A stretch of 64,000 nucleotides of DNA from an uncultured Collinsella sp. (GCA_958420355.1 CATZJG010000004.1:69972-133971), one strand, 5' to 3'; shown: positions 9,646-50,786, numbered from the stretch's first letter. The notes: generated from the letters alone by a model not told the origin. Numbers and translations: made by a program.

Positions 9646-10782
9646 ATGCGTCTGCCCATGAATACCTCGCTTGCCACGCTCAAGCCCTCCGGTATCCGCC
9701 GGATCAACGCGCTCGCCGCCCAGCACCCGGGATGCATCGCGCTTGCGCTTGGCGAGCCCGATTTTCCCACGCCCGATGTGATTAGTGCCGAGGTGACCGC
9801 CGCACTGGACCGCGGTGACACGCACTATCCGCCCAACAACGGTCGCCCCGCCCTGCGTGAGGCGTTATCTGCCTACATGGGGGACGCGGGCCTTACGTTT
9901 TCGGCCGACGAGGTCATCCTAACCGACGGCGCGACCGAGGCCCTGTCGGCAACATTCATGGCTATGCTCAACCCCGGCGACGAGGTCATCATCCCCACGC
10001 CGGCCTTTGGCCTGTACGAGAGCATCGTCGTGGCCAATCACGCCAAAGCGGTCTTTTTGGATACGGAGCCTGCGCAATTCCAGATTGACGAGGACGCACT
10101 TCGTGCTTGCGTGACGCCGGCGACCAAGGCCATCGTCATCTGCTCGCCCAACAATCCTACGGGCTGTATCCTCAACGCGGCTTCGCTCGACGCCGTGGCG
10201 CACGTGGCGGAGCAGGCGGGCATCTACGTGGTCTGCGACGACGTATACAACCGCCTGGTCTACGTGGACGGCTACGAGCGCTTTACCCAGCGCCACCCGG
10301 AGCTTCGCGATCAGACGGTAGTTATTGAGAGCTTTTCCAAGCCCTGGGCCATGACCGGCTGGCGTTTGGGCTGGCTCGCAGCGGCAGCCCCCGTCATCGC
10401 CGAGATCGCAAAAGCCCACCAATACTTAGTATCGAGCGCCGTCTCCTTCGAAATGGACGCCGCAGCCCGAGCCCTCACCGTCGACCCCACCCCCATGCTC
10501 GAAGTCTACCGAGCCCGTTGCAAACGTGTACTCGCAGCCTTAAACGCCATGGGCCTCGACGTAGTAGAGCCCGCAGGAGCCTTCTACACTTTCCCGAGCA
10601 TCAAAAAGTTCGGCCTAACCAGCGAAGCCTTCTGCATCAAAGCCATCAAAGAGGCCAACGTAGCCCTAGTCCCCGGAAACTGCTTCGGCACCGAAAGCCA
10701 CATCCGCCTAAGCTACTGCGTCTCCGACCAAGATCTGGACGAAGGCCTAAATCGCCTGTCCACCTTCATTTCAACCTTATAG
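9646..10782 (+). CDS. pyridoxal-phosphate-dependent aminotransferase, class I/II (aspartate-aminotransferase-like)
   Basis: SFSKPWAMTGWRLGW (PLP-lysine motif), NPTG, and a LALGEPDFPTP N-terminal motif. Confidence 0.9.
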   Translation: MRLPMNTSLATLKPSGIRRINALAAQHPGCIALALGEPDFPTPDVISAEVTAALDRGDTHYPPNNGRPALREALSAYMGDAGLTFSADEVILTDGATEALSATFMAMLNPGDEVIIPTPAFGLYESIVVANHAKAVFLDTEPAQFQIDEDALRACVTPATKAIVICSPNNPTGCILNAASLDAVAHVAEQAGIYVVCDDVYNRLVYVDGYERFTQRHPELRDQTVVIESFSKPWAMTGWRLGWLAAAAPVIAEIAKAHQYLVSSAVSFEMDAAARALTVDPTPMLEVYRARCKRVLAALNAMGLDVVEPAGAFYTFPSIKKFGLTSEAFCIKAIKEANVALVPGNCFGTESHIRLSYCVSDQDLDEGLNRLSTFISTL

Positions 10783-10830: not shown

Positions 10831-11058
10831 GGGGCGTCAGCCAACGAAAACCCGGGCTGCCCAAAGTCAACGCAGGCACGCGCCGCCGAAGGCCAGGCGC
10901 AAGGTTTTCGTAGATTCCGCACGAGCCGAAGAGCACTTAATGTGCTCTTCGTGCGAGCCAGGACTTGACCGAGCGAAAACCTTGCGCCTGGCCTTCGGCG
11001 GCGCGTGCCGGATGGTGGAATTGTGTGCAGCCCGGTTTTCCGTTGACCGACGCCGGGG
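10831..11058. repeat. nested palindromic element, diverged copy (perfect 36-bp arms 10875-10910/10974-11009 around a 63-bp core, plus an imperfect outer layer)
   Basis: The arms were checked base by base as reverse complements. The core shares TTCCGCACG, GCACTTAATGTGC and CAGGACT with the 77-bp core found at three other loci. Confidence 0.75.
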
Positions 11059-11185
11059 TCCCCGCCATAATACTTTCGGTTCACGCACGAATCCGCTGCC
11101 AGAGACAGCCGGCGCAAACGGGTCTTACCCGCGAGCTTAATGGGACTTCCCGCCAGCCGAGGTGGTCGAGTAGATATGTCTTCTC

Positions 11186-21774: not shown

Positions 21775-21800
21775 CTTCCAAGTACGTTAACCGCCCTTCC

Positions 21801-21838
21801 AAAGACCCGTTTCCCAACAGGGAAGCGGGTCTTTTTTG
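21801..21838 (+). terminator. Rho-independent terminator after rpoC
   Basis: AAAGACCCGTTTCCC pairs with GGGAAGCGGGTCTTT, and the run continues as TTTTTT. Confidence 0.8.
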
Positions 21839-21844
21839 GTGAGG

Positions 21845-22036
21845 AACGTTACCTCGACGAGTACGTCGGATTCCCGGAACGGGCCGCCCGCTGTTTAAGT
21901 TTGTCGCGAGTTCCGCACGCAAAGGAAAGCACTTAATGTGCTTTCCGTCTTGCGCAGGACTGTAGAGCAGCAAACTTAAACAGCGGGCGGCCCGTTCCGG
22001 GAATCTGCCCCCGCGCACAGAAGGGGATTCCTTTTG
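21845..22036. repeat. 192-bp module A containing a nested palindromic element (palindrome 21869-22005; TTAA-77 bp core-TTAA at 21895-21979)
   Basis: It is a direct repeat of 23862-24053, with about a dozen substitutions. The 26-bp outer arms are perfect. The 85-bp centre is identical to the copies at 23912-23996 and 41183-41267. Confidence 0.85.
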
Positions 22037-22062
22037 CCAATAAGGGACAGGTTTATTTTGGT
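22035..22062. repeat. left 28-bp inverted repeat bounding the sigma cassette
   Basis: The reverse complement of TGCCAATAAGGGACAGGTTTATTTTGGT matches 23831-23858 at 27/28 positions. Confidence 0.65.
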
Positions 22063-22153
22063 AGGTTATTCCTGCTTGAATTTGAAACATTTCGTTCGGT
22101 CAAAGCGTATCTATGGTGAGGGCCTCAGCAAGAATCATTAACGTCACCGGGAG

Positions 22154-23705: not shown

Positions 23706-23830
23706 GGTCTGAGGCCGCTTCCTACTAGGGGAAGCGGCCTCTTTTGCGTTAAATGGAAACGCCGCCGATTTCCATGCGACAGATGAGAGCAGATTACCGC
23801 TGGAGCTCGACGTTTCCCCAGATAAAACCG

Positions 23831-23858
23831 ACCAAAATAAACCTGTCCCTTTTTGGCA
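23831..23858. repeat. right 28-bp inverted repeat bounding the sigma cassette
   Basis: ACCAAAATAAACCTGTCCCTTTTTGGCA. It includes the small hairpin CCTGTCC..GGCAGG. Confidence 0.65.
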
Positions 23859-23861
23859 GGT

Positions 23862-24053
23862 AACGTTGCCCCGACGAGCGCATCGGATTCCCGGTCCGGG
23901 CGGCCCGCTGTTTAAGTTTGTCGCGAGTTCCGCACGCAAAGGAAAGCACTTAATGTGCTTTCCGTCTTGCGCAGGACTGTAGAGCAGCAAACTTAAACAG
24001 CGGGCCGCCCGGACCGGGAATCCGCCCCCGCGCACAGAAGGGGATTCCTTTTG
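23862..24053. repeat. 192-bp module B containing a nested palindromic element (palindrome 23885-24023; TTAA-core-TTAA at 23912-23996)
   Basis: Direct repeat of module A. The arms differ from A at three positions per arm, and each difference is mirrored on the partner arm. Confidence 0.85.
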
Positions 24054-24107: not shown

Positions 24108-24136
24108 TTGACGGCACAGCTAACGCCACGTATCCT
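24108..24136 (+). promoter_or_regulatory. candidate sigma-70-type promoter for rpsL
   Basis: TTGACG, a 17-nt spacer, then TATCCT, located ~95 nt upstream of the rpsL start. Confidence 0.4.
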
Positions 24137-40485: not shown

Positions 40486-41112
40486 ATGAAGAAGCTGTAT
40501 CTACTCCGCCACGGCCAGACGGAGTTCAACGTCAAAAAGCTGGTCCAGGGCCGCTGCGATTCACCGCTGACCGACCTGGGCCGCAAACAAGCGGGAATGG
40601 CAGCCGCATGGCTCAAGAGCCACGACGTTGTCCCCGACAAAGTGGTCTCTTCGCCCTTAGGCCGAGCCATGGACACAGCTCAGCTCGTCGCATGCGAGCT
40701 CCTCGGCCCGGACGCAGCAGCCGAGCCCTGCGAAGGCATCATCGAGCGCTGCTACGGCACCTTCGAAGAAGGCCCGCACGACGCTCTGCCCACCGACGTC
40801 TGGGATCCGGGCGAGGACCTGGTCCCCTTCGGAGGAGAAGGAAGCCAGGCGCTGCAAGAACGTATGGTGGACGCCCTTACCAATCTCATGAGCTCCGAGG
40901 GCATCGAAACCCTCCTAGCAGTAAGCCACGGCAGCGCTAGCCGCCAATTCATCAAGGCTGCAGCCCCAGAGGGCTTCGAGCTCCCAACAAAACTCCCCAA
41001 CTGCGCCATCATGATTTTCGATTTCGATGAGGCAAAGCCACAAGCAGAAGGCGAGCCAATGAATTGCAAGTTCACCCTTCAGCAAATAGTGGACCCTCAA
41101 CAAAGTAATTAG
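40486..41112 (+). CDS. histidine phosphatase (phosphoglycerate-mutase superfamily)
   Basis: LYLLRHGQTEFN (RHG motif), SPLGRA, and a VSHG second histidine motif. Confidence 0.85.
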   Translation: MKKLYLLRHGQTEFNVKKLVQGRCDSPLTDLGRKQAGMAAAWLKSHDVVPDKVVSSPLGRAMDTAQLVACELLGPDAAAEPCEGIIERCYGTFEEGPHDALPTDVWDPGEDLVPFGGEGSQALQERMVDALTNLMSSEGIETLLAVSHGSASRQFIKAAAPEGFELPTKLPNCAIMIFDFDEAKPQAEGEPMNCKFTLQQIVDPQQSN

Positions 41113-41157
41113 CTGAGCGAGCAGAGTTAAGCAGACATCAAGGTGCCGTCTCCCGAG

Positions 41158-41292
41158 CTTGGCAGAGGGGCGGCGAAATATATTAAGTTTGTCGCGAGTT
41201 CCGCACGCAAAGGAAAGCACTTAATGTGCTTTCCGTCTTGCGCAGGACTGTAGAGCAGCAAACTTAATATATTTCGCCGCCCCTCTGCCAAG
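41158..41292. repeat. nested palindromic element copy C (perfect 25-bp arms; TTAA-77 bp core-TTAA at 41183-41267)
   Basis: The core is identical to copies A and B. The arms CTTGGCAGAGGGGCGGCGAAATATA / TATATTTCGCCGCCCCTCTGCCAAG are unrelated to the A/B arms. Confidence 0.85.
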
Positions 41293-41560
41293 CCCAGGCG
41301 ACTCCACGCACTTTACCTGCGTAAACAATGTGAGTGAAATATGAATCTCGATGGATACGCCCGCAGCCGTGTATACTAAACAGCTGTGTGTAACCAGGGG
41401 AGTATTCTGGCTGGACAAAATGCCTGCTTAATAGGGTTGTCAGGTAGTCCGGGCGAAATACAAGGCTGGGGAGCACGTCGTGTAAGTAGTGGTCCTCTAG
41501 GGGCGTACGCTCGGTGGTGTACGCATTGTCCCAAGACCACGCGAGAGTTGGGATCATATC

Positions 41561-47411: not shown

Positions 47412-47420
47412 CTATCCCTA

Positions 47421-47645
47421 CTCATTGGGGGCTCATTGGGGACAGACATAAATGAGTGGCCGTTGATTGGCAGTCATTGGGGACATACTCATTGGGGACA
47501 GACTTAAATGAGTGGTCGTCGCTTGGCATTCATTGGGGACAGGCTTAAATGAGTGCCGTTGAAACGCCGGTAGCTGGGGACGTTCCCTATGTGCCGGCAG
47601 TTAGGGAAGTCCCTATCTGCCGGCAGTTTGGAACAGTCCTTTGAT
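47421..47645. repeat. degenerate tandem array (five CATTGGGG(A) units, then three ~26-nt GGGGACG/TGCCGGCA units)
   Basis: CATTGGGG starts at 47423, 47434, 47475, 47490 and 47531. The 42-44-nt units CTCATTGGGGACAGAC(A/T)TAAATGAGTGG... occur three times. The array ends with CTGGGGACGTTCCCTATGTGCCGGCAG, TTAGGGAAGTCCCTATCTGCCGGCAG and TTTGGAACAGTCC. Confidence 0.7.
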
Positions 47646-49840: not shown

Positions 49841-50058
49841 GTCTAAATCTGTAACAACTAGACCGTTAAAAGTGGGCTAGGTGTTACAGATTGAGATACT
49901 TCCGAACCTTGCCGTCCCTTTGTCTCGATCTGTAACATCTGGGACCGATTTTGACGAGTAATTGTTACAGATTGAGATTTTCCCTTGAGGGGGATTCGAA
50001 TGTCTCGATCTGTAACGGATAGACCGGAAAATGGGTTCTAACTGTTACAGATCGAGAC
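49841..50058. repeat. three tandem hairpin units (15-bp inverted repeat, 27-nt loop, ~80-bp period)
   Basis: GTCT(A/C)(A/G)ATCTGTAAC at 49841, 49922 and 50002. The partners GTTACAGAT(T/C)GAGA(T/C) are at 49883, 49964 and 50044. The third unit pairs perfectly at 15/15. Confidence 0.75.
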
Positions 50059-50126
50059 GTTTTGGGACCGCGGCTGAGCCATTGCGGCAAAGCCACCACA
50101 AAGGTGCCTGCCCTTTTTGGCAGGTT

Positions 50127-50786
50127 TTAGGGCTCCCAGGGGCAGGGGGCTTCGATGTGGATGTGCTCACCGGTTACGGGATGCGTAAAGGACACGCTGT
50201 GGGCATGGAGCATCAGGCCGCAGGGGCGCGGCGTTCCGTACAGGTCGTCGCCAACCAGGGGATGACGCTCGCTCGCCAGGTGCACACGGATTTGGTGTTT
50301 GCGGCCGGTGAGCAGCTCGACATCGATATACGAGCGTGTGGGCAGGCCACGACGGCTCTTAAGACGCTTGAGCACCTTCACGCGCGTCTGAGACGGCTTG
50401 CCGCTGGCGCCAACGCGCATCTTGCGGCTATCGTGACGGTCGCGGGCGATGGGCTTGTCGATGAGCTTTTCGTCCCAGTCGATCTTGCCCTCGGCGAGCG
50501 CGAGGTAGTGCTTTTCGAAAGCGTGGTCGATGACCATCTGGTCAAAGGCAGGTTGCGTCTGCTTGTCGAGCGAGAACAGCACCACGCCGGTGGTGTCACG
50601 GTCCAGGCGGTTGAGCGGCTGCATGTCGGTCGCGGCAAAGCCGTCGCCCATCGCCAGCAGCAGGTCGCTGGCGTAGTCGGTGAGCGTGCGCTCGCCGGTG
50701 CCGTCGCCGTGGACGATCATGCCGGCGGGCTTGTTGATGGCCATGAGCCAGGCGTCGCAGTAGAGGACTTGAGGTTCTTCGTTCAC
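50127..50786 (-). CDS. RluA-family pseudouridine synthase
   Basis: AINKPAGMIVHG, LNRLDRDTTGVVLF (catalytic Asp motif), GRKHQIRVHL. GTG start 15 nt after the U32 gene stop. Confidence 0.85.
   Translation of the reverse strand: MNEEPQVLYCDAWLMAINKPAGMIVHGDGTGERTLTDYASDLLLAMGDGFAATDMQPLNRLDRDTTGVVLFSLDKQTQPAFDQMVIDHAFEKHYLALAEGKIDWDEKLIDKPIARDRHDSRKMRVGASGKPSQTRVKVLKRLKSRRGLPTRSYIDVELLTGRKHQIRVHLASERHPLVGDDLYGTPRPCGLMLHAHSVSFTHPVTGEHIHIEAPCPWEP

Follow-up and report, generated by a model that had tools for sequence, protein, structure and literature searches.

Among the palindromic repeats described in bacteria, those closest to the element reported here fall into a few classes. The REP elements of proteobacteria, with their BIME and REPIN-RAYT arrangements, are multi-copy, extragenic and palindromic and often lie just after stop codons, as 3' stem-loops of messenger RNA (mRNA); BIMEs are also mosaics of modules and substrates of recombination. 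ERIC/IRU elements, the Correia elements of Neisseria, RUP/BOX and other miniature inverted-repeat transposable elements (MITEs) are about 100-150 bp long, form a long hairpin, are intergenic, are co-transcribed with their neighbours and have TA-type brackets. The attC sites of integrons preserve a structure but leave most of the sequence free, and it is their asymmetric unpaired bases that set the strand to be read. Here we describe, from a 64,000-nucleotide stretch of an uncultured Collinsella sp. (GCA_958420355.1, CATZJG010000004.1:69972-133971; hereafter the window), a family of dispersed intergenic long-hairpin repeats of ~110-165 bp that resembles these classes in many of the respects just listed. 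The family is represented in the window by four loci (L1 to L4), is so far known from Collinsella alone and is apparently uncatalogued.

In the way it works the family resembles the intergenic palindromic repeats of the REP/BIME and ERIC/Correia class and nevertheless lies outside that class, because it has no conserved termini and no fixed duplication, and no RAYT or other transposase gene was found. REPs are imperfect palindromes of 20-40 nt with a conserved stem, a 5' GTAG and a RAYT gene, whereas the Collinsella element is 110-165 nt long, with a conserved apex on locus-specific, near-perfect arms; GTAG occurs only in its GACTGTAGAGCAG subtype, not in the GCCCGAGCAG or TGACCGAGCG subtypes, and a RAYT (Y1 transposase) gene flanked by the repeats was not seen in ~1.1 Mb of loci. 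MITEs have conserved terminal inverted repeats, their target duplication is fixed and their alleles are cleanly filled or empty, whereas here the termini differ from locus to locus, the bracketing TTAA covaries and no clean empty site was found. Compared with classical MITEs and REPs the architecture is therefore reversed, with conservation at the tip and near-perfect arms of free sequence. It is likewise opposed to that of attC sites, in which the base is conserved (R''/R' boxes, RYYYAAC/GTTRRRY), the tip is variable and cassettes and an integrase are present; in Collinsella the tip is conserved, the base is free and there are neither cassettes nor integrase. A structured non-coding motif is already known from Collinsella and human-gut metagenomes (the Collinsella-1 RNA motif, Rfam RF01700; Weinberg et al. 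2010, PMC2864571), and was rejected as a match on comparison with its alignment, since its sequence and architecture are unrelated. Rfam 15 gave no match at the gathering score over the whole window and nothing relevant at E values up to 10 for the L1 locus (21780-22100); the literature searched on the element's sequence or on repeats of Collinsella and the Coriobacteriia contained no description of it.

The preliminary description of the window had drawn attention to a 77-bp core, bracketed by TTAA and identical at three loci, at the apex of perfect palindromes. We found three exact copies of the 77-mer (21899-21975, 23916-23992 and 41187-41263), all on the + strand and with 0 mismatches against a chance expectation of 0, and the identical stretch indeed amounts to 85 bp once both TTAAs are counted (TTAA+77+TTAA; 21895-21979, + strand, at L1). 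Beyond the TTAAs the arms pair perfectly over 26 bp at L1 and 25 bp at L3 (41158-41292), as had been reported, and over 28 bp, not 27, at L2. Counted with the adjoining stem TTAAGTTTG, the perfect arms of L1 (21869-22005, + strand) measure 35 nt (21869-21903 / 21971-22005) and enclose a 67-nt asymmetric apex, and those of L2 (23884-24024, + strand) measure 37 nt (23884-23920 / 23988-24024). At L3 (41143-41307, + strand) the arms extend over 49 nt (41143-41191 / 41259-41307) and are 90% paired, the pairing being perfect within 41158-41292. The L3 arms, which had been called unrelated to the others, are indeed not alignable to them; they share, however, the loose design of the family, GC-rich on the outside (GGGGCGG-like) and AT-rich on the core side (ATATTAAG).

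Two further qualifications apply to the three-locus picture, although the sequence identity itself stands. L1 and L2 are not independent copies, because both sit in one 204-nt direct repeat (21833-22036 / 23850-24053, both on the + strand, 92% identity) that consists, around L1, of the hairpin flanked by 36 nt on the left and 31 nt on the right. A fourth member had also been overlooked: L4 (10875-11009, + strand) is a diverged subtype with 36-nt perfect arms and no TTAA brackets, a lower module TTCGTAGA…TGACCGAGCG and an apex of the type AGCC/GAAGAGCAC. It keeps the family spacing TTCCGCACG-N9-GCACTTAATGTGC-N13-CAGGACT, and its apical stem is altered compensatorily. The RNA fold reaches -105.7 kcal/mol (z = -13.6) and the single-stranded DNA folds of the loci reach -58 to -70 kcal/mol (z about -14), both against shuffled controls. 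A covariance model built on 13 copies scores L1 at 136 bits on the + strand versus 64 on the - strand and L4 at 97 bits, and finds no member in the window beyond L1 to L4.

A pattern composed of the blocks common to L1 and L4 was used to search a collection of species-representative genomes and returned at least 120 matches. Among the matches listed, nearly all records are named Collinsella or Coriobacteriaceae and a few only 'uncultured bacterium'; one is a contig end labelled Methanobrevibacter smithii (L044, CAVHBE010000088.1), where the Collinsella-type hairpin probably reflects binning contamination. Many of the contigs begin or break off within the element, as is characteristic of a multi-copy repeat. 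With the addition of strain loci obtained via rpsL and rplJ, these matches form a copy set of 149 matches, comprising 123 unique full copies in about 51-54 arm clusters. Over 719 kb the covariance model gave ~125 forward matches, so the copy search suggested earlier yielded about 125 further Collinsella copies; forward scores lie far above reverse scores, which indicates that the element has polarity. In the Collinsella aerofaciens record NZ_OY725717.1 (899,693 bp) there are 12 BLAST places, no annotated feature underlies the best listed place (the L2 locus), and the first 50 kb contain no copy. Copies are thus sparse in this record (12 in 0.9 Mb), and the four in 64 kb of our window represent a local concentration. 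A phage or plasmid origin was considered and rejected, as there are 2 matches in viral contigs, 0 in a phage database and a sole 'plasmid' match, NZ_OY725717.1 itself; this PLSDB entry is labelled 'plasmid 6' yet bears rpoC, rpsL, fusA, recA and ftsK and is evidently a chromosome fragment.

Comparison of the copies reveals a two-part layout, in which a conserved, strand-asymmetric apex of ~75-85 nt sits on locus-specific arms of 20-49 bp (median 31). The apex follows the consensus AGTTCCGCACG…CAC-TTAAT-GTG…CAGGACTG…GAGCAG. Its near-invariant blocks are (R)TCGCGAG-TTCCGCACG, a 9-bp apical stem closed by CAC-TTAAT-GTG, and CAGGACTG-NNN-GAGCAG; position by position, AGTTCC-GCACG, CAC-TTAAT-GTG, CCG, CAGGACTG and GA-GCAG are near-invariant across copies. 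Between these blocks the apex is modular, with three main mid-modules (CAAA/GTCTTGCG, AGCC/GTGCGAGC(C) and AACA/GTCGTGAG), each having its own 5-bp helix and setting the invariant CCGCACG in its own register; there are also five common 9-bp apical stems and several lower modules. The arms of different loci are not alignable; their common design is GC-rich on the outside, with ATAT/TAAGG beside the apex, and the 5' arm is G-rich. Pairing is nevertheless nearly complete, reaching 98.6% over ~50 different arm sequences (49 mismatches, 1.4%, in 3564 stem positions), and in a 13-sequence alignment 26 of the 51 pairs are compensatory. These figures bear out the alternative that had been offered from the start, namely a hairpin whose outer helix only has to pair. 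Conservation fades gradually away from the apex with no sharp border, no motif is conserved outside the hairpin, and the hairpin base has no conserved sequence. A conserved segment of ~80 nt upstream of some copies was considered as a further component and rejected, as it is a neighbouring inverted copy and contains no tRNA. Since a hairpin persists at orthologous L2, L3 and L4 loci in nearly all strains and species covered while arms and apex type change, we take the unit to be the whole hairpin, not the 77-bp core.

The TTAA brackets have a correspondingly simple explanation. The stem adjacent to the apex reads TTAAGTTTG…CAAACTTAA in about one-third of the copies, and elsewhere TTTAGTTCG…CGAACTAAA, ATAAGGTCG…CGACCTTAT or CAACATCG…CGATGTTG, always compensated on the opposite side. 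TTAAG in the register of the window is present in ~38 of 128 copies, the others having TTTAG, ATAAGG, ATGAAG, CAACATCG and similar sequences, again with the 3' side compensated. Because the variants are always compensated, TTAA belongs to a helix that covaries and is no target-site duplication; it is the commonest version of the apex-adjacent stem. This finding bears directly on the proposal to read the 77-bp core as a miniature, non-autonomous transposon that ends in GTTTG…CAAAC, duplicates TTAA and prefers the centres of pre-existing palindromes. Such an element would account for the identical 85 bp on non-alignable arms at three loci, for identical or near-identical apexes on different arms across genomes, and for the differences in apex type between close strains at one locus. 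However, TTAA is absent or replaced in most subtypes, L4 among them, and conservation has no sharp border. No match (0) to the empty sites predicted for L1/L2 and L3, in which one TTAA links the two arms, was obtained from a metagenome collection, which offered no positive control. Only ~9 other perfect palindromes with arms of at least 16 nt exist in 1.1 Mb of Collinsella DNA, none of them arm-like, and the common design of the arms marks them as homologous rather than as arbitrary targets.

The strain distribution of L1 tells against insertion as well. L1 is present or absent among strains, and the difference is a unit of ~190 bp whose flanks are homologous to those of the L2 unit; the polymorphism thus takes in the 36 + 31 nt of non-palindromic flank, and L1 is a segmental duplicate of L2. 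L2 itself is kept at its position in most strains, and the two strains that lack it show untidy deletions, one of them retaining the right arm alone. Apart from L1/L2, no two loci share arms. No transposase came to light either: none was found in the window, in agreement with what had been reported, and none adjoins the elements recurrently within 2.5 kb of ~50 loci, where the neighbours are diverse housekeeping genes with no element-specific gene family. A Y1 transposase beside L1 in strain L003 (300-2530) was examined as a candidate and rejected, being an ordinary IS200 TnpA that, together with an IS3-family element, is inserted in the rpoC terminator of that strain only. On this evidence the reading of the core as a TTAA-duplicating mobile element at palindrome apexes is largely refuted, and we consider it very improbable. 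The idea that the arms arose by fold-back copying of target DNA was also rejected, since different loci share an arm design and the arms of L1 are those of L2.

The observation that an apex common to several loci sits on locus-specific arms holds, and the exchange of apex types between loci is better explained by recombination than by insertion. Thirteen of the 15 combinations of mid-module and apical stem were seen, and 10 of 121 apical stems are hybrids. Several elements (L016, L051, L073, L128 and L050) combine the left arm of one locus with the right arm of another, and hybrids carry non-complementary arms or hybrid apexes. Close strains can have, at the same locus, apex types that differ at ~16 positions, and orthologues of L3 elsewhere in Collinsella differ from it in both arms and apex type. 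Mosaic apex modules, hybrid elements and swapped apex types together show that the copies recombine with one another, and the hybrid elements indicate that the repeat family mediates rearrangements. We infer that the 85 bp common to L2 and L3 derive from gene conversion confined to the homologous apex.

We next consider how arms that differ from locus to locus remain so nearly perfect. In 116 orthologous pairs with flanks that are no more than 12% different, the pairs being non-independent, arm divergence is 5.2% per nt versus 5.3% in the flanks. Among stem positions, 180 changed on both sides (169 of them fully compensated) versus 51 on one side, whereas independence of the two sides would give an expectation of 10.6 double changes; double changes thus account for 78% of the stem positions altered. 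A single compensated pair is the whole difference over 225 nt between some orthologues, and one orthologue pair differs by a compensated one-base indel. At the L1 locus, copy L122 (4837-4889) carries, in place of the 3' apex half GTCTTGCGCAGGACT, an exact reverse complement of the 5' half TTTGCGTGCGGAACT, so that the apex has become a 24-bp perfect stem and its asymmetry is lost. This copy would be a natural product of template switching.

The coupled changes of the arms and the symmetrised apex of L122 both point to hairpin-templated correction. Template switching at quasipalindromes is an established mutational mechanism in Escherichia coli and yeast, where imperfect inverted repeats at hotspots are turned to perfect complementarity by arm copying (PMC7202029), and coupled changes of arms, compensated indels and symmetrised copies such as L122 are what it predicts. 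It is a mutational mechanism and not an element family; in Collinsella it would act continuously on a natural repeat family. While the coupled evolution of the arms is a directly observed pattern, its probable mechanism is intrastrand hairpin-templated synthesis or repair (quasipalindrome template switching), by which a change in one arm would be copied to the other. If a mutation in an arm were either reverted or copied across with equal odds, the rate of paired substitution would equal the neutral per-site rate, as observed. With a symmetrising force of this kind presumably at work, the asymmetry that more than 120 apexes retain argues for selection on the apex sequence; the asymmetric apex would most likely be a recognition site for a protein.

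One alternative is a DNA-level site: the hairpin or cruciform, with its asymmetric apex, would serve a trans-encoded structure-specific enzyme (an HUH/Y1 transposase, a tyrosine recombinase or a nuclease) as substrate, and elements would be moved, copied or exchanged by it via folded single-stranded DNA, by analogy with REP-RAYT systems, IS200/IS605 ends and integron attC. Near-perfect pairing without wobble tolerance speaks for such a site, as does the conserved sequence of an asymmetric region that defines the strand while the arms of the hairpin are otherwise free in sequence; the exchange of apexes between loci, the many contigs that break at the element and, in a comparison aimed at replication-strand bias, a weak orientation bias by GC skew (14 versus 31 clusters) are also in keeping with it. 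Relative to the local coding strand, however, orientation is unbiased (25 versus 19), and ~1.1 Mb around copies contain no linked or recurrent enzyme gene, the sole Y1 transposase being the IS200 TnpA of one strain. No recent transposition is visible, as arms are not common to different loci, and ordinary RecA-type recombination together with template switching explains the data with no dedicated enzyme. We therefore regard a DNA-level site of this kind as distinctly unlikely. A more specific version, in which the apex would be the recognition module of a structure-specific enzyme that acts on the extruded or single-stranded hairpin, copying or swapping apexes among elements or priming fold-back synthesis that rebuilds the arms, is quite improbable. 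If it were true, the family would be a new mobile or self-maintaining DNA element with its identity in the hairpin tip rather than in the ends, and its strong polarity toward the 3' ends of genes would have its origin in a domesticated function, the formation of transcript ends.

All copies are intergenic, and a stop codon lies less than 50 nt from the hairpin in 25 of 51 clusters. In 23 arm clusters it is the right end of the hairpin that is abutted in this way, by a gene on the opposite strand, as against 2 clusters for the left end (P = 2e-5); a further 10 same-strand stops lie 50-99 nt to the left. Judging from their C-terminal sequences, the abutting genes are likely to be valS, a uvrD-like helicase gene, nrdD, def and gatB. 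Terminator-like sites were called in the flanks of only 4 of 40 clusters and at none of the window copies, neither strand has the T-run after the hairpin that an intrinsic terminator would have, and no promoter, terminator or other motif is common to the flanks across loci. As a separate observation, another Collinsella repeat family, consisting of inverted pairs GGAAAGTGCGTCCCA…TGGGATGCAGTTTCC, adjoins several of the long hairpins (L023:5075-5184, L111:1783-1894, L050:4249-4450 and L101:7690-7790).

The most likely cellular role of the Collinsella family would be that of a highly stable stem-loop at the ends of transcripts, in 3'-end formation or mRNA stability; REP and ERIC elements are known to act in this way. 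The hairpin usually starts 3-40 nt past a stop codon with no canonical terminator nearby, and would act on the 3' end of the transcript. A different RNA-level interpretation is that the copies constitute a structured non-coding RNA family, either cis-acting elements of untranslated regions or small RNAs, in which the apex would be a functional RNA motif, such as a protein-binding or RNase-processing site, and the long stem would provide stability. Extensive covariation, an extreme folding energy, a conserved asymmetric apex with clear polarity and the 23-against-2 polarity toward abutting stop codons all agree with this interpretation; several copies moreover end 1-25 nt ahead of a ribosome-binding site, and the L1/L2 unit is closely preceded by a promoter-like motif and closely followed by a terminator-like hairpin. 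On the other hand, neither strand shows an excess of wobble pairs, G:U-type pairs being very rare, and elements occur in both orientations relative to flanking genes. L2 and L4 lie upstream of the promoter of the next operon and downstream of the previous gene, where transcription is uncertain, and neither a promoter nor a terminator motif is common to the loci. Coupled arm changes at a neutral rate and one symmetrised apex fit a DNA-templated process better than selection at the RNA level, and Rfam contains no match. We thus consider a non-coding RNA family unlikely.

The explanation that best accounts for the observations jointly is that of a tip-conserved hairpin repeat family of Collinsella with recombining copies, coupled arms and a role at transcript ends, and we hold it to be probable, if by no means assured. 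Several points weigh against it and call for caution. The orthologue comparisons depend on non-independent pairs and on crude gene calls based on open reading frames. Gene conversion between L2 and L3 is deduced from mosaicism across the family rather than from that pair itself, and in the lack of same-arm locus pairs or clean insertion polymorphism, current mobility is unproven for a family at 50 or more loci. Restriction to Collinsella rests on the listed matches, at least 120 in number, and so is not strictly proven. Orientation relative to neighbouring genes is mixed overall, though polarised for abutting genes, and the role in RNA is a supposition from sequence context. Finally, mismatches of the G:T type (17) are not commoner than those of the A:C type (14), and G:U-type pairs make up ~0.5% of stem positions. 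Such scarcity of wobble pairs is unlike typical selected RNA helices; without wobble tolerance, and with DNA-templated evolution, the structure may be maintained at the DNA level.

These results matter in two respects. C. aerofaciens is among the commonest actinobacteria in the human intestine, and the repeat family fragments assemblies. Copies are found at the borders of the most highly expressed operons (rplJL-rpoBC, rpsL-fusA, rplC and others) and right after the stop codons of housekeeping genes, positions from which they probably influence transcript ends or stability. The family also constitutes a natural, family-wide case of concerted palindrome-arm evolution at the neutral rate, including one visible symmetrisation, and offers a natural system in which the contribution of hairpin-templated mutation to genome evolution can be tested.

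Within the window, the genes identified are rplJ-rplL, rpoB-rpoC, rpsL-rpsG-fusA-rpsJ, a fatty-acid synthesis cluster and the rplC operon. An exact match to the S12 protein (rpsL) of the window occurs in more than 50,000 assembly blocks, the records retrieved being gut metagenomes and metagenome assemblies. The matches in the genome collection and an annotated record place the organism in the C. aerofaciens group. L4 occupies the gap between an aminotransferase gene (ending at 10782) and the rplJ promoter (11043-11071). L1 lies between the rpoC terminator and a gene for an extracytoplasmic function (ECF) sigma factor, and L2 between a DUF4179 gene and the rpsL promoter (24108-24136), ~85 nt upstream of the latter. 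L3 separates a histidine-phosphatase gene (ending at 41112) from rplC (41561). An outer inverted repeat (10846-10860 / 11028-11041, GAAAACCCGGGCTGC / GCAGCCCGGTTTTC) surrounds L4 and looks like a bidirectional terminator that the element has split, and this arrangement could be the trace of an old insertion into a terminator loop.

The segment between L1 and L2 has several features of its own. A 40-nt inverted repeat (22035-22074 / 23819-23858) brackets the ECF sigma/DUF4179 gene pair, each arm carrying the hairpin AAACCTGyC-CCTTwTT-GGCAGGTTT, which is also present at 50107-50130. An insertion sequence at this place was considered and rejected: the 1.8-kb segment with its 40-nt inverted repeats encodes the ECF sigma factor and the DUF4179 protein and no transposase, and the 'inverted repeats' are copies of a recurring terminator-like hairpin. 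This hairpin has 34 matches in the fetched Collinsella loci and resembles a bidirectional terminator module; the two-gene cassette as a whole is missing from strain L007. A motif resembling an ECF promoter, GGAAC-N16-CGTC (21845-21866), ends ~3 nt ahead of the L1 hairpin, and the same site ahead of L2 (23862-23883) is degenerate in the window (gtAAC…CATC) and intact in other strains. On the 3' side, a GGAATCC/GGATTCC hairpin followed by TTTTG, which is terminator-like, is found at both L1 (22000-22036) and L2 (24017-24053). The 204-nt unit consequently resembles a transcription unit of promoter, hairpin and terminator adjoining the ECF sigma gene, an arrangement that is confined to the L1/L2 locus and absent from other family members. 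The ECF sigma gene has a promoter of its own, TGAAAC-N17-CGTAT, near 22083-22110.

Other repeats were seen elsewhere in the window. Three copies of an inverted repeat, TCTCGATCTGTAACA…(~30 nt)…TGTTACAGATTGAGA, occupy intergenic DNA at 49842-50061, before a gene at 50031/50127, and resemble an operator array. At 47420-47640, after the terminator of a ribosomal-protein operon, there are tandem repeats of 41-56 nt with CATTGGGGACA and GGCAGTTnGGGA motifs, and a related doublet, CGGCACTTGGGGACGTTCCT, is found at 2930-2976; the two sites may represent a second, unrelated repeat family.

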